From assembly GCA_019661945.1 (NCBI GenBank), contig JAIFWI010000002.1, positions 763 through 64,762 on the forward strand: a DNA stretch of 64,000 bases. Direction: 5' to 3'. The DNA is from Candidatus Parcubacteria bacterium (GTDB taxonomy: Bacteria > Patescibacteriota > Minisyncoccia > Phycocordibacterales > JAKAEA01). Below are positions 5,738-45,255 of this stretch, in pieces (the first letter of the stretch is position 1; the number at the start of each line of letters is the position of its first letter). A program made the position numbers and the translations under genes. The notes below the pieces were generated by a model. The model was not told the origin of the DNA and searched no databases. It worked only from the letters and a program-made list of their open reading frames with translations.

Positions 5738-6343
5738 ATGGAGGGTAAATTTCAAACATCATTCATTCCAAAAAAATCTGGAGGTGGTCAGCCTTCGTAT
5801 GTCACGCCTGTCAGGACCATAAATTTCTTTACCCTGACAATTATAATTATTTTTGCCACGGTTGTTCTGCTTTCAGCCGGAGTTTATGGTTATAAATGGA
5901 TGCTTAACCGTAACAATGAAGAAATCAAAGATGAGTTAAGCGCAGCTCTTGATGCTCTCAGAAAAGAAAACATCGCAGAGCTTGGCAGACTCGACTCAAG
6001 AATTGAAACAGGTAAAACACTTCTTGGTGAACACGTAGCTCTATCTGAATTCTTTACGTTTTTGAGTAAATCAACGCTACAAAATGTTCGCTTTACAAAT
6101 TTTAGATACAGCCTGACCGGCGATCAGAAAATAACAGTCAGTATGAATGGTATGGCCAGAAACTTCTCTTCCTTGGCCCTTCAGATAGATGAATTTTCAG
6201 CCACAACATCACAAAAGTATATAAAGGGCCCGGTATTTTCCAGTTATAGTTTAGACAAAGCAGGCAATGTTTCGTTTGTGTTTACTGCTGTGGTTAATCC
6301 TGAGTCAATTTTGTATAAGGAGCTTTTTAAAGAAGAACAATGA
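5738..6343 (+). CDS. pilN: PilN-like pilus assembly protein (single N-terminal TM)
   Basis: Position after pilM; one TM then coiled coil. Confidence 0.5.
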   Translation: MEGKFQTSFIPKKSGGGQPSYVTPVRTINFFTLTIIIIFATVVLLSAGVYGYKWMLNRNNEEIKDELSAALDALRKENIAELGRLDSRIETGKTLLGEHVALSEFFTFLSKSTLQNVRFTNFRYSLTGDQKITVSMNGMARNFSSLALQIDEFSATTSQKYIKGPVFSSYSLDKAGNVSFVFTAVVNPESILYKELFKEEQ

Positions 6344-12161: not shown

Positions 12162-12263
12162 AGGGGATGTTCTTAAATTACTTATCCACATACCCTCCTT
12201 CTCCAGCAGAGCCTGCTAGACTATAATAAGAACATTAGTCACACGACTTATCCGTCTACCTTC

Positions 12264-12275
12264 GCCACGTGGCGA
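12264..12275. promoter_or_regulatory. Perfect 12-bp palindrome cgccacgtggcg about 45 nt upstream of the major pilin start; candidate regulator binding site
   Basis: Read directly. Confidence 0.3.
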
Positions 12276-12320
12276 ACGGCGGAAGCGGACGGTCGATTTA
12301 AATAAGTAATTATAATTATA

Positions 12321-12809: not shown

Positions 12810-12846
12810 TCTCAGTTTGGTAGTACGGTGATATGTTACCGTAAGT

Positions 12847-12875
12847 AAAAATCCCCAGATTGGGGATTTTTACTT
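12847..12875 (+). terminator. Rho-independent terminator (aaaaatcccca gat tggggatttt)
   Basis: Perfect 11-bp stem plus T-tract. Confidence 0.7.
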
Positions 12876-22370: not shown

Positions 22371-22441
22371 CGGGGCTTGGTGGAACGGTACCACGGGAGG
22401 CTCATAACCTCCAAAACCAGGTTCAACTCCTGGAGCCCCAA
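22371..22441 (+). tRNA. Candidate tRNA-Met(CAT) with C1:A72 mismatch (initiator-like), 71 nt
   Basis: Manual cloverleaf: D-stem GTGG/CCAC; anticodon stem GGAGG/CCTCC with loop CTCATAA; T-arm CCAGG TTCAACT CCTGG; acceptor CGGGGCT/AGCCCCA. Confidence 0.5.
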
Positions 22442-22469
22442 CAACGTAATACAAAAATAGAGGAACGAG

Positions 22470-22529: not shown

Positions 22530-22778
22530 TCAGAAGTTGGGCTTCCGGCTCCGGCCCATGCTAAGCCTGAGCGGCGTGATGTGCGGGATGCGCCGGCAGC
22601 TCTCGCTGTCGCGCTTACGGTAGTCAGCCCTGAGTTTGCCGGCGAACATCGGTGGCGGGTCGATCTTGACGATGCCCGGCTCGACGATCTGTGCGGTCGG
22701 TTCGCTCATCAGCTCGTGCCTGGACCTCGGCATCAAGTCGCTTCTGATCTGTCCGCACCACGGGGTGGTTCTGGGCAT
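22530..22778 (-). CDS. Small hypothetical protein in a GC-rich island
   Basis: 82 aa ORF with a GAGGAG RBS about 7 nt upstream; overlapping plus-strand ORF 22581-22877 is an alternative. Confidence 0.3.
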   Translation of the reverse strand: MPRTTPWCGQIRSDLMPRSRHELMSEPTAQIVEPGIVKIDPPPMFAGKLRADYRKRDSESCRRIPHITPLRLSMGRSRKPNF

Positions 22779-22918
22779 ACAGTGCTCCTCGAGAGGGTAG
22801 AGGTGAAGTGTTTGCGGGCTTTCCTTATCCCGCGCTGTCGCTATTATATCATATATAATCTATATGTCAAGGAATGATTTTACCATACCAATGATGTGTG
22901 ATATAGTGATTTTTGCAT

Positions 22919-22991
22919 GTCGGAGTAGCTCAGTTGGTAGAGCACAGGACTCATAAGCCTGGGGTCGTGGGTTCGATCCCCACCTCCGACA
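22919..22991 (+). tRNA. tRNA-Met(CAT), elongator-type (or tRNA-Ile2 if lysidine-modified)
   Basis: GTCGGAG acceptor, D-arm GCTCAGTTGGTAGAGC, anticodon loop CTCATAA, T-arm GTGGGTTCGATCCCCAC. Confidence 0.8.
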
Positions 22992-23046
22992 CAATCAAAT
23001 TTTTTGTTTGCTGAATAGTGAAAAATCTGATAGATTTTACGTACTT

Positions 23047-24764: not shown

Positions 24765-25034
24765 ATGAACGAAAAAGAACAATATATTGCTCTTATTAAT
24801 GAAATTATTCAAAAACAATCTCTCATTCTCGGACCACAAATTGCAGTTCTCAAAGCTCGAGGAGTATCCGGTATTACAGTCACTGATGAAGGCAAAGTTA
24901 CAGACATTAGCGTAGATCCTGCAGAAGCATTGCAGCAACTCATTGATCATTACGTAGAACTATCAGGCCAGATTGTAAGGAATGCTATGGACTCTGTTTT
25001 TGCTAAGTATCCTTCAATTAATCTCAAAAAATAA
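24765..25034 (+). CDS. Hypothetical protein
   Basis: 89 aa ORF; no recognisable motif. Confidence 0.4.
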   Translation: MNEKEQYIALINEIIQKQSLILGPQIAVLKARGVSGITVTDEGKVTDISVDPAEALQQLIDHYVELSGQIVRNAMDSVFAKYPSINLKK

Positions 25035-25035
25035 T

Positions 25036-25353
25036 ATGAACCCACTCGAATATATACATGTGCTGCTCGATATCGTCCTCTTAGTAGCTTTGATTTGGAT
25101 GGTGAGTGTAGCCTTGAAGGGTGTTGGTGGCATCATTGGTAGTGCCATTAACCTCATGACCATCGGTGTTCTTATTCTTGGTCTCGATCACATTTCTCGC
25201 CGATTACCAATTGAATATTTCCAATGGGATGGTGCCAATGGTGAGCTAATCCACCGAATTATTGCTTTGATAGGATTCTTTTTACTTGGATTTGGTTTTC
25301 GAAAAATTCGAATTATGACTATGAATATTCAAGCCCAGGTTAAACAAAAATAA
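25036..25353 (+). CDS. Hypothetical small membrane protein
   Basis: Start chosen immediately after the upstream stop; 3 hydrophobic segments. Confidence 0.45.
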   Translation: MNPLEYIHVLLDIVLLVALIWMVSVALKGVGGIIGSAINLMTIGVLILGLDHISRRLPIEYFQWDGANGELIHRIIALIGFFLLGFGFRKIRIMTMNIQAQVKQK

Positions 25354-25370
25354 ATGCAGCCGCAGGGTAT

Positions 25371-27137
25371 ATGTCCACTATTATTTATATTCTCATAGCG
25401 CTCGGCGGAATACTCTCTGCACTCTACTCTGTTTGGAGAAATCGAGGAGTAAAAGCAGATCTAAAGAAAAAAGAAGAAGATATGAGCAAGCGGATGTACG
25501 AGCTTGCCATTTTAAAAGACCTTGGAGACCGAATTGGTTATTCACTTAATGTAAAGGAGATTGTCGATGTTATTACAAGTTCTTTACATCAATTTATAGA
25601 CTACTCTGCTGTATCATATATGCTTCTCGAACCGGAGAAGATTATTTTCAAGGTGCATCTCGAAAAATCAGTCCATCGTCAATTTATTGTTGAAGTTCGC
25701 GACCGAATGCTCGGTGCCTTAGGTGCTTTGCTTGATCGTGAGCTTAATAAAAATACTGTCGAGGAAATTCTTTCCGGATCAATTCTCAACCGAGAGGGCC
25801 TTGAACCAGTTCGCTCGTTTTTCAACATTCCGGTCGTCATTGGCGGTCGGGTAGTAGCTATGATCACAGTGGCCGATACAAAAGTCGGACTTTATAAAGA
25901 AGAGGAAATGACTATTTTGTATAAAATTACTCAGCAAGCTTCAAATGCTGTTAGTCGATTGCAGGCAGTCGTCCAGACAGAACAAGCAAAATTGAATGCT
26001 ATGGTGGCCAGTATGCAGGATGGTGTTGTTATGACCGATACCGAATATCGTATTGTGGTCATCAATCCTGCCGCAAAAAAAGTCATTGGAGTAGCCCATG
26101 ATAAAGATGTCACCATTTTTGATTTCATTGATAATATGGGAGGGAAGATTGATATTCGGGGCCGGCTCGAAGAGAGTGTTACATTACAAAAACCATTTGT
26201 TTCGGATCGAGTTCTGGTCCGAGACCATTTCTTCCAGGTTTTTATTTTTCCCGTGCTATCTGATGATGAGATTCCAGCATTGCGCCGAGTGATTGGTGGA
26301 GCTGTCATCATACGTGACGTCACGCATGAATTTGAGCTTGAGCGAGTCAGGGAAGACTTCATGTCGATGATTGTGCATGAATTGCGTACACCGCTTGATG
26401 CTATTAAAAAAATGAGTGAAGTGTTAAAGCAGCCGGCTACTCGCGTCAAAAAAGTTACTCCGGACAACAATAAAGAATATGTCCAGCTCATTTATCAGAA
26501 CTCTTCAGAAATGCTCGAACTTGTAAGCGATATTTTGGATTTGGCAAAACTCGAAGCCGGTAAATTTGAAATTGTGCCGGTCTCGGCTGATTTCGGAGAA
26601 ACAATTGCCAATCGAGTTCAATTCTTTAATATTTCGGCTCGTGATGCCGGTATTGCACTAAAAGCTGAAGTCTCTAAAGATATACCAAAGGCAGCTTTGT
26701 TTGACCCTGAAGCAATTAAACAGGTGCTCAATAACCTTATGTCCAATGCCTTGAAATTCACCAAACAAGGCGGATCGGTGACGGTAGCAGCATTCCGTCA
26801 TGAGCCCGGACAAAGCCTTGTTTCAGAGCTAGCCAAACTCAGTCTGCGTTTCCCGGCTCATTTTCCTGATGAAAGTTTGGCATCGCTACCGGCCTCGCTT
26901 GTTGGTGTTGTTATTGATACTGGCGTTGGTGTTCCAGAGGATATGCAGGGAAAGCTCTTTAATAAGTTCAAGCAATTGAAAAATAAAACAGTCACAACCT
27001 CAATCCGAGGTACCGGTTTGGGCTTGGCTATTGCCAAGGGTATTGTTGAGGAGCATAAAGGTAAAATCGGAGTAGTATCACAAGTAGATGTTGGTAGCGC
27101 TTTCTACTTTGTGATACCATTACAGGAAGTCCATTAA
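25371..27137 (+). CDS. Sensor histidine kinase (TM, GAF-like, PAS-like, HisKA, HATPase with insert)
   Basis: H-box HELRTPL; N, G1, G2 boxes (NLMSNALKFT, DTGVGVP, GTGLGLAIAK). Confidence 0.85.
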   Translation: MSTIIYILIALGGILSALYSVWRNRGVKADLKKKEEDMSKRMYELAILKDLGDRIGYSLNVKEIVDVITSSLHQFIDYSAVSYMLLEPEKIIFKVHLEKSVHRQFIVEVRDRMLGALGALLDRELNKNTVEEILSGSILNREGLEPVRSFFNIPVVIGGRVVAMITVADTKVGLYKEEEMTILYKITQQASNAVSRLQAVVQTEQAKLNAMVASMQDGVVMTDTEYRIVVINPAAKKVIGVAHDKDVTIFDFIDNMGGKIDIRGRLEESVTLQKPFVSDRVLVRDHFFQVFIFPVLSDDEIPALRRVIGGAVIIRDVTHEFELERVREDFMSMIVHELRTPLDAIKKMSEVLKQPATRVKKVTPDNNKEYVQLIYQNSSEMLELVSDILDLAKLEAGKFEIVPVSADFGETIANRVQFFNISARDAGIALKAEVSKDIPKAALFDPEAIKQVLNNLMSNALKFTKQGGSVTVAAFRHEPGQSLVSELAKLSLRFPAHFPDESLASLPASLVGVVIDTGVGVPEDMQGKLFNKFKQLKNKTVTTSIRGTGLGLAIAKGIVEEHKGKIGVVSQVDVGSAFYFVIPLQEVH

Positions 27138-27146
27138 TCAAAATTC

Positions 27147-27524
27147 ATGAAAAAAATACTTATAATTGACGACGAACCCCTTTTCTGCAAAGTAGTCCGC
27201 GAAGGTCTTGATACCGCAAAATATGAAGTGTCTGAAGCTGTTGACGGTGTTGATGGCCTGAAAAAAGTTGAAGAAGTAAATCCTGATCTCATTCTTCTTG
27301 ATATTATGATGCCCAATCTTGACGGTATGGGCTTTTTGAAACAGCTCAATGAAAAATATGGCAAAGGCAAAATTCCGGTTATCATTACCTCAAATCTTTC
27401 GACTATCACCAAGATCAGTGAGGGCCTAGCTCTTGGTGTCAAAGGCTATATCATCAAATCAAATGAGAGCATTGAGACTATTGCTCGAACGATTGACTCG
27501 ATTCTAGAACAAAAACCTGCTTAA
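27147..27524 (+). CDS. Stand-alone response regulator receiver
   Basis: LIIDDEP...LLDIMMPNLDG...K. Confidence 0.85.
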   Translation: MKKILIIDDEPLFCKVVREGLDTAKYEVSEAVDGVDGLKKVEEVNPDLILLDIMMPNLDGMGFLKQLNEKYGKGKIPVIITSNLSTITKISEGLALGVKGYIIKSNESIETIARTIDSILEQKPA

Positions 27525-27601
27525 GGTAGGTCATTGAATTTCCTCTCTTTATATATTAGTATCTTAGACTAAGCCGTTAGGGTTTAGTGTATGCCGATGT
27601 A

Positions 27602-27640
27602 CCCGCCCGAACGGACCGAGTCCGCTCGGTACGGGCGGGG
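27602..27640. other. GC-rich nested hairpin (cccgcccg...cgggcggg enclosing accgag/ctcggt) upstream of the GIY-YIG gene
   Basis: Read directly; no T-tract. Confidence 0.4.
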
Positions 27641-27663
27641 CTCAGGGGAGCACGTGATTATAT

Positions 27664-27909
27664 ATGTTTACTGTATACGTCTTACGGGATTCAGAAGGTA
27701 AGTTATACAAAGGGGTAACTAATAATTTATCCCGACGACTTAATGAGCATAAGAATGGTCATACACGCTCTACTAGATATATGGATGATATCAATGTAGT
27801 TTATACTGAAGAGTATCCTGATTGGGAGGTCGCAAGAAAACGAGAAGTATATTTCAAAAGTGCGGCGGGTAGAAGATTTTTAAAGAAAGTAATAAATTTG
27901 CCGATGTAG
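27664..27909 (+). CDS. Small GIY-YIG nuclease family protein (YhbQ-like)
   Basis: 81 aa; VYVLRDSEGKLYKGVTNNLSRRLNEHK GIY-YIG core; stop codon lies inside tRNA-Thr. Confidence 0.8.
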   Translation: MFTVYVLRDSEGKLYKGVTNNLSRRLNEHKNGHTRSTRYMDDINVVYTEEYPDWEVARKREVYFKSAAGRRFLKKVINLPM

Positions 27910-27972
27910 CTCAGTTGGTAGAGCACGTCATTGGTAATGACGAGGTCTCCGGTTCAATCCCGGACATCGGCT
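27900..27972 (+). tRNA. tRNA-Thr(GGT)
   Basis: GCCGATG acceptor, anticodon loop TTGGTAA, T-arm TCCGGTTCAATCCCGGA. Confidence 0.9.
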
Positions 27973-28021
27973 CCGATTCTTTTTTTGCCAAAAGGTTATA
28001 AATTCACTATGATGGCAGTAC

Positions 28022-28094
28022 GCCAGTGTAGCTCAGTTGGTAGAGCACCGCTTTCGTAAAGCGGGGGTCGCCGGTTCGATCCTGGCCACTGGCT
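28022..28094 (+). tRNA. tRNA-Thr(CGT)
   Basis: GCCAGTG acceptor, anticodon loop TTCGTAA, T-arm GCCGGTTCGATCCTGGC. Confidence 0.9.
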
Positions 28095-28195
28095 CAGTTT
28101 CCGCCATAGGCGGACCAGCCTATGGCTGGGGATAGAGCACCGCTTTTCCGCCTGAGGCGGAGGGGTCCGCAGTTCGATCCTGCGAGGTGGCTCTA
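28095..28195 (+). other. Degenerate tRNA-like element. It has a D-loop-like GGATAGAGCAC and a canonical T-arm plus 3' acceptor strand (CGCAGTTCGATCCTGCG AGGTGGC), but no pairing 5' acceptor strand or anticodon arm. Several mutually exclusive GC hairpins precede it.
   Basis: Manual folding attempts failed to give a cloverleaf; hairpins ccgcc-ata-ggcgg, ccagcc-tat-ggctgg, gccatagg...cctatggc, ccgcc-tga-ggcgg. Confidence 0.3.
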
Positions 28196-28208
28196 GTATA
28201 ATTATTGT

Positions 28209-29084
28209 ATGGACAAAGAAGCGCTAGAGATGCAAATTAAGACTATTGAGGACCAGATGGCCCAGGCGGATTTTTGGAATGATAAAGATAAGGCTCAAGC
28301 GGCAATTCGTGAGCTTCAGGAATTAAAAGAAAAACGCGAAGGAGCAGGCAAGTATGACAAGGGTAATGCCGTCATGAGTATTCTCTCCGGCGCCGGCGGT
28401 GATGATGCTGAAGATTTTTCCAATATTCTCTTTGAAATGTATCGAAAGTTCGTCGCAAAAAAAGGCTGGCAGGCAAGTATTGTTCACGAAAACAAAAATG
28501 ATCATGGTGGATATCGAAACATTACGTTTGAAATAATTGGCAAGGGTACCTACGGGACCTTGAGAAACGAGTCAGGCGTGCATCGCTTAGTGCGCATTTC
28601 TCCCTTTAATGCCAAGCAAATGCGCCACACCTCTTTTTCATTAGTGGAAGTTATTCCAAAATTTGAAAAAGTTTTAGAGACCGACATTCCACCTGATCAG
28701 GTAAGAGTTGAACTTTCAAAAGCAGGCGGCCCAGGCGGACAGAATGTGAATAAGCGAGAAACGGCGGTGCGTTTGGTTCATATTCCAACTAATATTTCCG
28801 TTCACGTCGCCTCAGAACGCTCACAAGCCCAGAATAAAGAGAAAGCCTTTGCCCTTTTGAAAGGTAAATTATTTAAAAAAGAAGAAGAAGATCAAAAGAA
28901 AAAAGCAGCAGGCATGGCCGTGAGTTCCACGACAGATATCGAATGGGGCAGTCAGATCCGCTCATATGTCTTCCACCCCTATAAAATGGTTAAAGATCAT
29001 CGAACCAATGTTGAGGTTCATAATGTGGATAAGGTTCTCGATGGCGATTTGGATGAGTTTATCGAAGCTGAAAAAGAGCTCTAA
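28209..29084 (+). CDS. prfB: Peptide chain release factor 2, N-terminally short, no frameshift site
   Basis: SPF and GGQ motifs; 291 aa; alignment begins near E. coli RF2 residue 26. Confidence 0.85.
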   Translation: MDKEALEMQIKTIEDQMAQADFWNDKDKAQAAIRELQELKEKREGAGKYDKGNAVMSILSGAGGDDAEDFSNILFEMYRKFVAKKGWQASIVHENKNDHGGYRNITFEIIGKGTYGTLRNESGVHRLVRISPFNAKQMRHTSFSLVEVIPKFEKVLETDIPPDQVRVELSKAGGPGGQNVNKRETAVRLVHIPTNISVHVASERSQAQNKEKAFALLKGKLFKKEEEDQKKKAAGMAVSSTTDIEWGSQIRSYVFHPYKMVKDHRTNVEVHNVDKVLDGDLDEFIEAEKEL

Positions 29085-29152
29085 ATAATGCTGAGGGAGT
29101 AATTCTCAGGGGTTGCAATCTTTTCGTAAGATACTACAATAGGTAAGGCCAT

Positions 29153-29833
29153 ATGATTTACTTTGATCAGGTTTCAAAAATTTATCCAGACAATTCAATT
29201 GCCCTTGATGATGTGAGCTTTACCATAGAGCCCAATGAATTTGTCTCGGTGGTAGGCCACTCAGGGGCAGGCAAGACCACCCTTCTCAAGATGATCCTCG
29301 CAGAAGAAAAGCCCACCGAAGGGGCCGTTTATTTTCAGTCTACCAACATTCATGAACTTCGCCGAAATGAAATGAATTATTTCCGGCGTAAAATTGGCAC
29401 CATTTTCCAAGATTTCCGCCTTTTGCCCAATAAAACTGCCTACGAGAATATTGCCTTCGCTATGGAAGTAGCCGGCAAGACCGATGAGGAGATTGAATCC
29501 GATGTGCCGCATGTCTTGGAACTTGTTGATCTTGGTAAGAAGATGTGGAGTTTCCCGCATCAGCTCTCAGGTGGAGAAAAGCAAAGAGTGGCCATTGCCC
29601 GGGCTATTGTCAATCATCCGGACATTATTATTGCCGACGAGCCGACCGGAAATCTTGACCCGATTAATACCTACGAAATTGTCCAGATTTTGAAAAAGAT
29701 TAATGACTTAGGCACAACCGTAATTCTCACGACCCACAATAAAGGTGTGGTAGATGTAGTGAATAAGCGGGTCATTACCATCGAGAGCGGCAAAATTATT
29801 CGCGACGATAAAGAGGGCAAATACGTTTTGTAA
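29153..29833 (+). CDS. ftsE: Cell division ABC ATPase FtsE
   Basis: Walker A GHSGAGKTT, signature LSGGEKQR, Walker B IIIADEP. Confidence 0.9.
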   Translation: MIYFDQVSKIYPDNSIALDDVSFTIEPNEFVSVVGHSGAGKTTLLKMILAEEKPTEGAVYFQSTNIHELRRNEMNYFRRKIGTIFQDFRLLPNKTAYENIAFAMEVAGKTDEEIESDVPHVLELVDLGKKMWSFPHQLSGGEKQRVAIARAIVNHPDIIIADEPTGNLDPINTYEIVQILKKINDLGTTVILTTHNKGVVDVVNKRVITIESGKIIRDDKEGKYVL

Positions 29834-29842
29834 ATTAAATTT

Positions 29843-30769
29843 ATGTTGTGGACCAATACAAAAAGAGTTGTGCGTTCAGGTTTTGTAAACTTTTGGCGAA
29901 ATGGTTTCGTCTCGCTTTCTTCAATCCTGGTTATGACCATCACTCTGTTTGTCCTCGGCTCACTTATTTTCACCTACGTTCTTTTAAATGGTGCCCTCAT
30001 TCAAATTAAAGATAAAGTAGATATCAATGTTTATTTTGTCACAACCGCAAAAGAAGAGGATATTAAATCAATTCAAAAATCTCTAGAGACCTTGCCTGAA
30101 GTTTCAAAAGTGGTCTACTCATCTCGAGAAGATGTCTTAGCTGATTTTAAAAAGCGTCACGAAAATGATCAATTCACTCTCCAGGCTCTTGATGAATTGC
30201 AAGAAAATCCTCTCGGGGCAATTTTAAATGTAAAAGCCAAGGATCCATCACAATATGCCGGTATTGTCCGCTTTCTGGAATCAAAGAGTGTTTCTCAGAC
30301 AGACGGATTGCCCATTGTTGATAAGATTAACTACAATCAAAATAAAGTGGCTATTGATAAATTAACTCGAATTATTGACAGCGGTCAGCGACTTGGACTA
30401 TTTCTGCTCGGAATTCTCATTGTTATCTCGATTATGATTACTTTTAATACTATTCGACTAGCAATTTACATTTCTCGGGACGAAATTGCCGTTATGCGCC
30501 TTGTTGGAGCCAGTTCAAAATATATTCGCGGACCATTCGTCATTATCGGCATTATGTATGGCATTTTCTCAGCTATAATTACTGGACTTATTTTCCTGCC
30601 GGCCACATACTATCTCGGCCGGGCTACAGCCAACTTTTTCACTGGTATTAATGTCTATAACTATTACATTACTCACTTCCAGTATATTTTCCCTATGCTC
30701 CTTGGAGCCGGGGCATTGATCGGAGCGGTTTCGAGTTACATGGCCGTGCGGCGGTATTTACAGGTTTAA
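29843..30769 (+). CDS. ftsX: Cell division permease FtsX
   Basis: 308 aa, 4 TM with large periplasmic loop, follows ftsE. Confidence 0.85.
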   Translation: MLWTNTKRVVRSGFVNFWRNGFVSLSSILVMTITLFVLGSLIFTYVLLNGALIQIKDKVDINVYFVTTAKEEDIKSIQKSLETLPEVSKVVYSSREDVLADFKKRHENDQFTLQALDELQENPLGAILNVKAKDPSQYAGIVRFLESKSVSQTDGLPIVDKINYNQNKVAIDKLTRIIDSGQRLGLFLLGILIVISIMITFNTIRLAIYISRDEIAVMRLVGASSKYIRGPFVIIGIMYGIFSAIITGLIFLPATYYLGRATANFFTGINVYNYYITHFQYIFPMLLGAGALIGAVSSYMAVRRYLQV

Positions 30770-30793
30770 CAGTATCATATACAGTAGTACTTT

Positions 30794-32500
30794 ATGGCGA
30801 CGCGGAAAAAACGAAAATATATCTTTGTGGTGGGCGGCGTGATGTCAGGCGTCGGCAAAGGCATCGCCTCCTCATCAATCGGTACGGTCTTAAAAGCGCG
30901 GGGACTTAACGTCACCGCGTTAAAAATTGATCCCTATATCAACGTCGATGCCGGTACTATGAATCCGACTGAGCACGGCGAAGTTTTTGTCCTCGATGAC
31001 GGTGATGAAACCGATCAGGACATGGGTAATTACGAACGCTTTTTTAATACAACGCTTTCTCGGGTTAATTACATGACCACCGGCCGAGTCTATCTTGAAG
31101 TTATCCGCAAAGAGCGAAATTTAGAATACAAAGGCAAGAACGTTGAAGTTGTGCCGGATATTCCTTTCGAAGTTATCCGCCGGATTGAAAAAGCCACCGA
31201 GAAAGCTGATGCTGATGTCACTATTATTGAAATCGGCGGCACTATTGGCGAGTATCAAAATATTATATTCCTCGAAGCGGCTCGTATGATGAAGTCGAAA
31301 AATCCGCAAGATGTGGCTTTTGTCATGGTCAGCTATTTGCCGATTCCATCAAAAGTGGGGGAGATGAAAACAAAACCGACCCAGTATGCGGCAAGAACCT
31401 TAAATGGTGTGGGAATTCAGGCCGATATTATCATCGCCCGGAGTGAAGTGGCCCTCGATCATAAGCGTAAAGAAAAAATTGCTCTCTTTTGTAATATTCA
31501 GCCGGAAAGTGTTATCTCGGCGCCTGATATTGATAGTATTTATGACGTGCCGGTTAACTTTGAGCGGGATAATCTGGGAGCAATTTTGTGTAAAACATTA
31601 AAAATACCAAGCCGACCGACAAATCTTTCTGCATGGAAGTCATTTGTTAAAAAATCAAAGAGCCCGAGCAAAGAAGTGAAAATTGGCGTGGTTGGAAAAT
31701 ATTTTGATTCAGGTGATTTCGTTTTGTCTGATGTCTACATTTCAGTTCTTGAGGCTCTAAAAATTTCGGCCTATCATTTGGGAGCAAAGCCCGTCATTGA
31801 TTATATTAACTCTAAAGACTTTGAAGGACCGCAGCGCGAGAAAAACTTACAAAAGTTAAAAGAATATCATGGCATTCTTGTCCCCGGAGGCTTTGGCTCA
31901 ACTGGTATTGAAGGCAAAATAAATGCTATTCAATTTGCCCGGGAGAAAAAGATTCCATACTTTGGCCTGTGTTACGGTATGCAGCTTCTGGTTATTGAAT
32001 ATGCCCGCAATGTCGCGAGGTTGAAAGGCGCGCATACGACCGAAGTTGATCCGAAAACAAAATATCCTGTTATCGATATCATGGAAGATCAGAAGAAGCA
32101 CATGGAGAAGGGAAGTTTCGGCGCAACCATGCGTCTCGGTGCTTATCCTGCTCACTTAAAGAAAGAAACTGTGGCGCGTTCTGCTTACAATGAAGAAATG
32201 ATTTCAGAACGTCACCGCCATCGCTACGAAGTTAATCCTAAATATATTCCTGATATTACAAAAGCTGGTCTCGTCTTCTCCGGCACCTCACCCGACGGCC
32301 GGCTAATGGAAATTGCCGAACTTCCTGAGCGTCAGCATCCATTTTTCCTCGGCACCCAATTCCATCCAGAATTCACCGCCCGCCCGCTTAATCCTCATCC
32401 GTTATTCACTCGCTTCCTTGAAGCAGCTCTGAAACGAATAAAACCTCCAATAAAAATTGCTGGAAAGGTAGGTGGCGTGAAGCAAAATACTATTGCCTAA
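30794..32500 (+). CDS. pyrG: CTP synthase
   Basis: 568 aa; N-terminus YIFVVGGVMSGVGKG; C-terminal GATase (GLCYGMQ, H...E). Confidence 0.95.
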   Translation: MATRKKRKYIFVVGGVMSGVGKGIASSSIGTVLKARGLNVTALKIDPYINVDAGTMNPTEHGEVFVLDDGDETDQDMGNYERFFNTTLSRVNYMTTGRVYLEVIRKERNLEYKGKNVEVVPDIPFEVIRRIEKATEKADADVTIIEIGGTIGEYQNIIFLEAARMMKSKNPQDVAFVMVSYLPIPSKVGEMKTKPTQYAARTLNGVGIQADIIIARSEVALDHKRKEKIALFCNIQPESVISAPDIDSIYDVPVNFERDNLGAILCKTLKIPSRPTNLSAWKSFVKKSKSPSKEVKIGVVGKYFDSGDFVLSDVYISVLEALKISAYHLGAKPVIDYINSKDFEGPQREKNLQKLKEYHGILVPGGFGSTGIEGKINAIQFAREKKIPYFGLCYGMQLLVIEYARNVARLKGAHTTEVDPKTKYPVIDIMEDQKKHMEKGSFGATMRLGAYPAHLKKETVARSAYNEEMISERHRHRYEVNPKYIPDITKAGLVFSGTSPDGRLMEIAELPERQHPFFLGTQFHPEFTARPLNPHPLFTRFLEAALKRIKPPIKIAGKVGGVKQNTIA

Positions 32501-45012: not shown

Positions 45013-45255
45013 ATGACCTATTTTGTTTATATTCTTGAATGCGCCGATAAAACGCTTTACGTCGGTTGTACCAATAATTTAGAGAAAAGAATACTTCAGC
45101 ATAATACCTCCAAACAAGGCGCGCACTATACAAAAATTCGAAGACCAGTAATATTACGGTATTCTGAGAAGTTTCCAAACTTGAAGCTTGCTCGCGCCCG
45201 CGAAGCGGAAATAAAAAGGTGGGATAGGAAGAAGAAATTAAATCTTTTCAATTAA
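45013..45255 (+). CDS. Small GIY-YIG nuclease family protein (second copy)
   Basis: FVYILECADKTLYVGCTNNLEKRILQHN. Confidence 0.8.
   Translation: MTYFVYILECADKTLYVGCTNNLEKRILQHNTSKQGAHYTKIRRPVILRYSEKFPNLKLARAREAEIKRWDRKKKLNLFN

Follow-up and report, generated by a model that had tools for sequence, protein, structure and literature searches.

What is the tRNA-like sequence lodged between a tRNA-Thr(CGT) gene and prfB in a stretch of 64,000 nucleotides (nt) from a Candidatus Parcubacteria bacterium, referred to below as the window? It was originally predicted to be a degenerate tRNA-like element with alternative GC-rich hairpins, which could represent a tRNA pseudogene, an attachment site (att)-like duplicate of a tRNA 3′ half, or an atypical or permuted tRNA. 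The analysis argues for the first of these. Judged from its sequence, 28096–28193 is very probably a non-functional, dead tRNA gene and the remnant of an ancestral tRNA-Thr(CGT), whose decoding role is now held by the intact, differently typed tRNA-Thr(CGT) abutting its 5′ side. The locus contains the following features:

28022–28095, + strand: intact tRNA-Thr(CGT), the replacement copy (ARAGORN; Rfam, 65.3 bits)
28096–28193, + strand: degenerate tRNA-Thr(CGT) relic with hairpin scars, abutting the 3′ side of the intact tRNA-Thr(CGT)
28098–28114, + strand: mini hairpin TTTCCGCC-ATA-GGCGGA, a direct repeat of 28145–28161 (88 % identity)
28115–28129, + strand: mini hairpin CCAGCC-TAT-GGCTGG, covering the expected 5′ acceptor strand, positions 8–9 and the D-stem 5′ strand
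28133–28146, + strand: D-stem 3′ strand and anticodon-stem 5′ strand, TAGAGCACCGCTTT, 14/14 identical to 28041–28054 of the intact tRNA
28148–28160, + strand: mini hairpin CCGCC-TGA-GGCGG, standing where the anticodon loop and 3′ anticodon stem should be; CGT itself is absent
28162–28193, + strand: 3′ part of the relic, with variable region, T arm, 3′ acceptor strand AGGTGGC and discriminator T
28209–29084, + strand: prfB, release factor 2 (RF2), 291 amino acids (aa), the gene preceded by the ancestral tRNA-Thr(CGT)

Sequence, fold and ancestry of the relic

The tRNA character of the element resides in a D-loop-like GGATAGAGCAC (28130–28140, by sequence reading) and in a perfect T arm, CGCAG/TTCGATC/CTGCG, with a GTTCGATCC-type loop (28168–28184), which is followed by AGGTGGC at 28185–28191 and T at 28192. 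These signatures and all the hairpins listed in the original prediction are present and exceed chance: CCGCCNNNGGCGG occurs twice in the window, both times in the relic (0.03 expected), and the 20-mer spanning the T arm and acceptor strand occurs once (0 expected). The first mini hairpin, whose core ccgcc-ata-ggcgg lies at 28101–28113, fills the gap up to the upstream tRNA, and an alternative stem of 8–9 bp, gccatagg/cctatggc, pairs 28103–28110 with 28119–28126. The three hairpins had been described as mutually exclusive, which is correct for the 8–9-bp stem, as it excludes both of the others, but not for the first two small hairpins, which are adjacent and compatible. The 100-nt relic stretch folds at −55.1 kcal/mol (z = −4.96 versus shuffles), its minimum-free-energy structure pairing AGAGCACC with GGTGGCTCT beside the T arm, and its perfect GC palindromes stand in a genome of 42 % GC.

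Several parts required of a working tRNA are missing, as had been noticed. No 5′ acceptor complement GCCACCT... occurs in the 64-kb window, the nearest sequence being the intact tRNA at 28022 with three mismatches, and the proposed search for a matching 5′ half likewise found no GCCACCTTAGCTCAGTTGG-like sequence in the window besides that intact tRNA. In the region CCAGCC-TAT-GGCTGG-GGAT, 9/19 positions match the expected GCCACCTTAGCTCAGTTGG in our own ungapped comparison. Nor does the relic contain a 7-nt anticodon loop: pairing of CCGCT with GGCGG would enclose 12 nt, and the other possible stem, of 5 bp, closes a loop of 3 nt. With the 5′ acceptor and D-stem region scrambled and the anticodon loop replaced, no cloverleaf, anticodon, charging or decoding is to be expected.

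Covariance models are in agreement with this assessment. The Rfam tRNA model RF00005, whose gathering threshold is 29 bits, yielded no match at 28096–28195 even at E ≤ 10, and hence no clean tRNA call, while both intact neighbours scored 65–71 bits. A family covariance model (R1), built from 42 tRNA-Thr(CGT) genes of relatives, assigned 25.9 bits (E about 5e-7) to 28118–28193, compared with 97.9 bits for the intact tRNA-Thr(CGT) and 91.2 bits for the intact tRNA-Thr(GGT) upstream; its alignment of the relic breaks four of seven acceptor pairs and places a 9-nt insert where the anticodon loop should be. The best acceptor pairing is 3/7 in the covariance-model alignment and, by our own reading, 5/7 in the frame used by ARAGORN. 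The latter program labels 28115–28193 as a 79-nt tRNA-Ser(tga) with its anticodon at position 39. Bacterial tRNA-Ser belongs to class II, with a long variable arm, and the genuine tRNA-Ser(GCT) of the window is 88 nt long (ARAGORN). The tRNA-Ser(tga) call, with five extra bases before the anticodon, a mismatched acceptor and no variable-arm stem, was rejected as a false positive, and the tRNA set of this genome should therefore exclude it.

The ancestry of the relic is indicated by both homology and position. In a blastn search against 80 related loci (designated below by L numbers), 28162–28193 was identical to the 3′ end of tRNA-Thr(CGT) over 32/32 nt in L015, 30/30 nt in L033 and 29/29 nt in L052, and the relic as a whole can be aligned with the relatives' tRNA-Thr(CGT), which is of the type GCCACCT-TA-GCTC...AGGTGGC-T. 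In 20 related Patescibacteria loci tRNA-Thr(CGT) ends 0–46 nt before the prfB start, with a spacing of 0 nt in nine of them (L015, L084, L085, L008, L007, L017, L048, L038 and L029). All six of the closest relatives with upstream sequence (RF2 82–85 % identical) carry it 0–23 nt before prfB, as a single tRNA and with no relic; neither the relic nor the GIY-YIG gene described below is found at this locus in the closest RF2 relatives L081–L085 and L001 (82–85 % identical). With its 3′ end 15 nt from the prfB ATG, the relic occupies the place of the family tRNA and is therefore the orthologue of the ancestral tRNA-Thr(CGT); by sequence homology and synteny with prfB it is a member of the Paceibacteria/Zambryskibacteria-like tRNA-Thr(CGT) lineage, and the RF2 relatives place the window itself in a bacterium of that type. 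The suggestion of a tRNA pseudogene is thus upheld by the full-length alignment, by the conserved place before prfB and by the comparison with homologous loci. A metagenome scan with the relic-specific pattern GGATAGAGCAC N27-50 GTTCGATCCTGCGAGGTGGC gave no match.

The short spacing between tRNA and prfB, often 0 nt, implies that the 5′ end of prfB mRNA probably derives from tRNA 3′ processing and is almost leaderless, and suggests that tRNA processing generates prfB mRNA 5′ ends in these bacteria. A putative promoter was located by promoter scan at 27985–28013, and the relic is probably transcribed within the tRNA–prfB unit as a passenger. A perfect TATAAT at 28197–28202, 6 nt upstream of the prfB ATG, is compatible with a leaderless start. 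A sigma-70 promoter for prfB inside the relic was considered and rejected: the T-loop sequence TTCGAT at the −35 place has 2/6 matches, and the promoter scan was silent. The RF2 of the window is short (291 aa) and, compared with that of E. coli, presumably lacks the N-terminal part in which the usual frameshift site is located.

The intact tRNA-Thr(CGT) is of a different type from the gene it appears to have replaced. Its acceptor is GCCAGTG/CACTGGC and its T stem GCCGG/CTGGC, where the closest relatives have GCCACCT/AGGTGGC; among 45 sampled tRNA-Thr(CGT) genes the GCCAGTG acceptor, and with it the acceptor/T-stem combination, is unique and GCCACCT/AGGTGGC is the common type. The nearest matches of the replacement copy (87–90 %) occur in the more distant lineages L046, L043 and L051. 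The 3′ part of the relic is 75 % identical to it, and as both of its acceptor strands differ from the relic type, the intact gene is not a hybrid. The relic and the replacement copy nevertheless share the anticodon stem CCGCT (CCGCT/AGCGG in the intact gene), otherwise absent from 44 other tRNA-Thr(CGT) genes, and their central regions point to gene conversion or a shared history.

The nuclease gene, the hairpin and related tRNA loci

A second relic, also hairpin-bearing, lies a short distance upstream and is associated with a nuclease gene:

27593–27660, + strand: left relic, a 5′ half of tRNA-Thr(GGT) (GCCGATGTA / hairpin / GCTCAGGGGAGCACGTGATT), directly upstream of the GIY-YIG ATG
27602–27639, + strand: conserved 38-nt GC hairpin CCCGCCCGAACG...CGGGCGGG, lodged after tRNA position 9 of the left relic
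27664–27909, + strand: GIY-YIG open reading frame (ORF), 81 aa, catalytic domain only (Pfam PF01541, E = 1.4e-13)
27900–27974, + strand: intact tRNA-Thr(GGT) (ARAGORN, Rfam), identical by our own reading to the copies in L081 and L082

The GIY-YIG ORF is situated about 190 nt upstream of the tRNA-Thr(CGT) relic, and its last codons and TAG stop coincide with positions 1–10 of tRNA-Thr(GGT); as the left relic is the 5′ half of the same tRNA, the nuclease gene has a direct repeat of this 5′ part on either side. The odd D loop GGGGA is common to the two relics of the window, and both, like the GIY-YIG gene, are absent at the same site in the closest relatives L081 and L082. Another, distantly related GIY-YIG gene of the window (45013–45255, 32 % identity) stands alone between genes, with no tRNA, relic or hairpin, so that the tRNA association is restricted to one GIY-YIG subfamily. 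A 22-nt match of 73 % (16/22) to the 3′ end of the GIY-YIG ORF, situated before the intact tRNA-Thr(CGT), was considered as a trace of another such ORF but rejected, since by our estimate it does not exceed chance in AT-rich sequence.

The arrangement recurs in other genomes of the candidate phyla radiation (CPR). Nuclease homologues of about 80 aa with 65–75 % identity were examined at nine further loci, which together with the window give a sample of ten:

L039, 65–286, − strand: GIY-YIG ORF of the subfamily
L027, 6470–6708: GIY-YIG ORF of the subfamily
L086, L087, L089 and L094–L097, about 801–1046: GIY-YIG ORFs of the subfamily

At each of the ten, the 3′ end of the ORF overlaps the start of a tRNA gene (Asp, Thr-GGT, Thr-TGT, Ile, Ala, Val or Gln). 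Its stop codon is usually T8-A9-G10 of that tRNA, so that RNase P cleavage of the ORF–tRNA transcript would strip the stop codon, and its start lies close to, or at, the anticodon-loop end of an upstream duplicated tRNA 5′ half. The ORF is preceded in 9/10 loci by a hairpin-bearing 5′ relic of the same tRNA, the hairpin being placed after tRNA position 9, 13 or 21 in either orientation. A full module, comprising the 5′ relic, the CCCGCCCGAACG...CGGGCGGG hairpin, the ORF ending in the tRNA and the intact tRNA, is present in L039, L086, L087, L089 and L094–L097, where the isotypes are tRNA-Asp, Thr, Ile, Ala and Val. Copies of the hairpin were located as follows:

Window, 27602–27639
L039, 307–341
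L086, 750–785
L087, 742–783
L089, 749–784
L094, 750–781 and 1123–1159
L095, 750–785
L096, 753–787 and 1130–1164
L097, 732–770
L101 (viral contig), 12837–12869
L113 (viral contig), 12244–12279

Across 12 copies, found in both orientations, the hairpin termini are invariant or nearly so (one copy has CCTGCCCG); the hairpin is conserved in sequence, with no covariation, and its inner helices AACG/CGTT and TACCG/CGGTA are mutually exclusive. A scan of viral contigs returned 22 matches, mostly attributable to chance in GC-rich phage DNA; only those in L101 and L113 look true, and no tRNA or GIY-YIG gene was found near either.

Of particular relevance to the window are relics on the right-hand side that adjoin an intact tRNA of their own isotype, which occur in L094 and L096, where the nuclease is present, and in L058, where no nuclease was found. 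All have lost the 5′ acceptor strand, contain hairpins in place of the lost parts and keep the T arm and 3′ acceptor strand. In L094 (1109–1200) the 3′ relic of a different tRNA-Ala abuts the intact one, an inverted hairpin follows the anticodon loop, and the outer halves of the relics together make up one complete tRNA. An intact tRNA-Val in L096 is followed by two relics in succession (1113–1216 and 1230–1294), neither with a usable 5′ end and both with perfect T arms, and the hairpin sits in the D loop of one of them. In L058 a 5′ relic (5942–6007) and a 3′ relic (6133–6221) with a shared AT-rich hairpin insertion flank tRNA-Thr(TGT), with no GIY-YIG gene nearby; ARAGORN miscalls this 3′ relic as tRNA-Ser(act). 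The relic of the window is of the same kind, being of the same isotype as the intact tRNA it abuts, devoid of a usable 5′ acceptor strand and in possession of the T arm and 3′ acceptor strand.

Other insertions cluster at the same junction. In four loci tRNA-Thr(GGT) is split by a conserved insert of about 180–220 nt whose site lies immediately 3′ of the anticodon; the inserts begin after an exon T and end in G:

L019, 2134–2352: intron-like insert
L037, 1974–2152: intron-like insert
L052, about 1640–1740: intron-like insert
L028, upstream of 473: intron-like insert

In their R/S-like motifs and U/G splice-site bases these inserts resemble group I introns; the Rfam model Intron_gpI gave no match to the L019 and L037 inserts even at E ≤ 1. 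A 14–15-nt segment of the inserts, CGCCCGAACGACTGA (L019, L037 and L052), is identical to the 5′ arm of the conserved hairpin, a sequence match that hints at descent of the hairpin from a group I intron with its homing endonuclease. Other GIY-YIG homologues lie just 3′ of prfB in L027 (3885–4201) and L012 (3925–4240), where 21-nt inverted repeats (CCCGGTAGTGAAATTTTAGTT), spaced by about 275 nt, enclose them and give them the look of a small transposon-type unit. In L037 (2240–2690) an HNH-type ORF with CxxC...HxDGN-like motifs, another selfish nuclease, occupies the interval between tRNA-Thr(GGT) and tRNA-Thr(CGT). In L084 the 13-nt CGCCACCTTAGCT, consisting of the tRNA-Thr(CGT) 5′ end and the base before it, has an extra copy at 466–479, 75 nt ahead of the intact tRNA (541–614). 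With related loci carrying GIY-YIG genes, HNH genes or intron-like inserts, the tRNA-Thr/prfB junction of Paceibacteria emerges as a hot spot for selfish elements.

The recurrent module of GIY-YIG ORF, conserved hairpin and tRNA relic is a lead arising from this locus. If it proves to be a mobile unit, it would show that reduced CPR genomes tolerate nuclease genes in essential tRNA loci by means of tRNA duplication or replacement, and it would make available for study a compact nuclease together with its defined hairpin partner, be that DNA or RNA.

Proposed origin of the relic and its alternatives

The relic may be explained as a by-product of rearrangements that ensued when a GIY-YIG nuclease gene colonized the tRNA-Thr locus. 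The repair of a double-strand break, or a cassette replacement, would have installed a new tRNA-Thr(CGT) copy, and the resident tRNA-Thr(CGT) would have been displaced and truncated from its 5′ side. On the basis of the comparisons above, nuclease-provoked break repair or cassette replacement is a serious candidate for the cause of the relic, to which we give slightly less than even confidence; it would parallel the SegB-driven inheritance and amplification of tRNA segments in phages T4 and T6 described below. In a wider and somewhat more tentative formulation, a selfish element that replaces or duplicates tRNA genes would generate a series of hairpin-marked relics, and the relic of the window would be the right-hand scar of an apparently undescribed class of CPR selfish elements consisting of a GIY-YIG protein of about 80 aa, a hairpin and a dead tRNA copy, with the mini hairpins as collapsed copies of the large one. 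Literature searches on GIY-YIG, CPR and tRNA and on the hairpin sequence returned nothing relevant, which is no proof of novelty. Taken by itself, the idea that the three mini hairpins are collapsed copies is rather doubtful; it draws on CCGCC/GGCGG being a sub-word of CCCGCCCG/CGGGCGGG, on two of the mini hairpins standing at the D-loop and anticodon-loop places that full hairpins occupy in L094 and L096, and on the D loop GGGGA shared by both relics of the window.

Several observations weigh against this explanation. There is no GIY-YIG gene between the intact tRNA-Thr(CGT) and the relic, as the nuclease attaches to tRNA-Thr(GGT), one tRNA upstream. The canonical CCCGCCCGAACG...CGGGCGGG hairpin is not present in 28096–28193, which contains only CCGCC-NNN-GGCGG (twice) and CCAGCC-TAT-GGCTGG, and these three mini hairpins share with the canonical hairpin no more than the sub-word. 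The source of the replacement tRNA-Thr(CGT) was not found, and a metagenome scan with its 3′ end gave no match. The rare CCGCT stem shared by relic and replacement fits a duplication or gene conversion within the lineage better than simple import. Finally, decay of the relic is uneven, with 0 changes in 32 nt at the 3′ end and heavy change at the 5′ end, which could reflect selection on the 3′ part.

Some of these points favour an alternative that concerns the origin only: a second tRNA-Thr(CGT) arose by plain tandem duplication or was imported, after which the now redundant copy next to prfB decayed neutrally, with no role for the GIY-YIG gene and with the hairpins as local template-switch or slippage mutations. 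The rare stem and 14 identical bases common to relic and intact copy, the lack of a nuclease gene between them and the similar trio of 5′ relic, intact tRNA and 3′ relic in L058, with no GIY-YIG gene nearby, are all in its favour. We nonetheless consider it rather unlikely. Between the two copies there are about 11 differences in the acceptor and T stems, every one compensated, yet the 3′ end of the relic is unchanged, and a duplication old enough for such divergence is hard to reconcile with that. Localized damage creating perfect GC palindromes in a 42 % GC genome is likewise poorly accounted for, and the GIY-YIG gene stands 190 nt away with a hairpin-bearing relic of its own, in a combination that recurs elsewhere. 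A proposal that we regard as improbable is that the relic has been exapted as a tRNA-like leader: its T arm and 3′ acceptor strand, the latter paired with GAGCACC (28135–28141) in a pseudo-acceptor stem, would direct cleavage of the RNase Z/RNase P type and thereby create the prfB mRNA 5′ end, the part played by the intact tRNA in relatives where it adjoins the ATG. Such a role would suit the unchanged 3′ 32 nt, the minimum-free-energy pairing next to the T arm and a family in which prfB follows the tRNA at 0 nt in nine loci and within 46 nt in 20, so that its mRNA 5′ end probably derives from tRNA processing. However, the relics of L094, L096 and L058 keep their T arms and 3′ acceptor strands with no tightly linked downstream gene, so that retention of these 3′ sequences seems to follow from the way such relics form; moreover, the TATAAT before the prfB ATG could provide an independent start, and the element has been seen in this genome alone.

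The other readings of the original prediction fared worse. Integration into tRNA genes classically leaves a displaced tRNA 3′ portion next to an intact tRNA with the same anticodon, and the relic has that appearance; an attR-type scar of an integrase-mediated insertion whose mobile element has since been lost is nevertheless very improbable, given that the two 3′ ends are only 75 % identical, that the intact tRNA is not a hybrid but has both acceptor strands of the new type, that no integrase occurs among the ORFs of 25000–31500 and that the relic, which on its 5′ side includes D-arm and anticodon-stem sequence, exceeds the usual att core. Least credible of all is a functional atypical tRNA, be it a tRNA-Ser(TGA), an intron-containing or a permuted tRNA. 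The ARAGORN call at 28115–28193 and the perfect T arm would speak for it; against them stand the absence of an Rfam match at E ≤ 10, an anticodon at position 39 with the anticodon loop destroyed, at best 5/7 acceptor pairs, no long variable arm, no matching 5′ half elsewhere in the window and closest relatives that have no such gene here.

Further window features and comparison with known systems

Two further GC-rich features of the window were recorded away from the tRNA-Thr locus. Between two tRNA-Met genes (22371–22442 and 22919–22992) lies an island of about 300 nt (22530–22830) with several stretches of at least 70 % GC over 30 nt in this 42 % GC genome; it contains no convincing ORF and has no Rfam match, and it may be a foreign fragment or an unrecognized RNA. 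The most stable short hairpin of the window outside the tRNA region is a perfect 13-bp GC palindrome at 1823–1869 (GCCGCGCGCTTGA...TCAAGCGCGCGGC-like, −29 kcal/mol).

With bacterial tRNA pseudogenes and att remnants the relic shares its nature as a non-functional fragment beside an intact tRNA of the same anticodon, as well as the retention of the T arm and 3′ acceptor strand. It differs in that it keeps D-arm and anticodon-stem sequence and has GC hairpins in place of the lost parts, and also in that no integrase occurs among the ORFs of 25000–31500, no cargo lies between the copies and the intact copy does not combine a host 5′ part with an element 3′ part. The setting before prfB recalls the thrU-tyrU-glyT-thrT-tufB operon of E. 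coli, in which tRNAs and a translation factor are co-transcribed. Here, too, a tRNA-Thr is located directly upstream of a translation-factor gene, which implies co-transcription and the release of the mRNA by tRNA processing, although the downstream gene is prfB, the spacing is 0–46 nt, and in the window a dead tRNA holds the place.

The closest parallel for the nuclease is SegB of phages T4 and T6, a free-standing GIY-YIG homing endonuclease encoded in a tRNA gene cluster that targets the tRNA region, drives the preferential inheritance of tRNA segments and promotes tandem tRNA-segB amplification via microhomology that links the 5′ end of the tRNA to the 3′ end of segB; T4 homing endonuclease genes are also known to carry RNA hairpins ahead of their ORFs (PMC2988022; PMC13096335). 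The placement of a GIY-YIG nuclease gene among tRNA genes and a hairpin upstream of the ORF are common to both systems. However, the window represents a CPR bacterial chromosome rather than a phage, and its protein, a putative nuclease and possible homing endonuclease, is a catalytic domain of about 80 aa with no recognizable DNA-binding domain. Its ORF reads into the tRNA, with U8-A9-G10 as the stop, and the hairpin, whose sequence is conserved, lies within a duplicated tRNA 5′ half.

The hairpins also resemble repetitive extragenic palindromes (REPs) with their associated tyrosine transposases (RAYTs) and miniature inverted-repeat transposable elements (MITEs), as they are short, GC-rich and palindromic, associated with a nuclease and found at varying nearby positions in both orientations. 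In contrast to the REP/RAYT system, the nuclease is of the GIY-YIG type and not an HUH transposase, and unlike REP or MITE-like elements the hairpins have been seen only in tRNA relics and in two unrelated viral contigs, with independent mobility not evidenced. Set against these systems, the relic itself is an ordinary tRNA pseudogene of a known kind, while the mobile-element context in which it stands may be undescribed.

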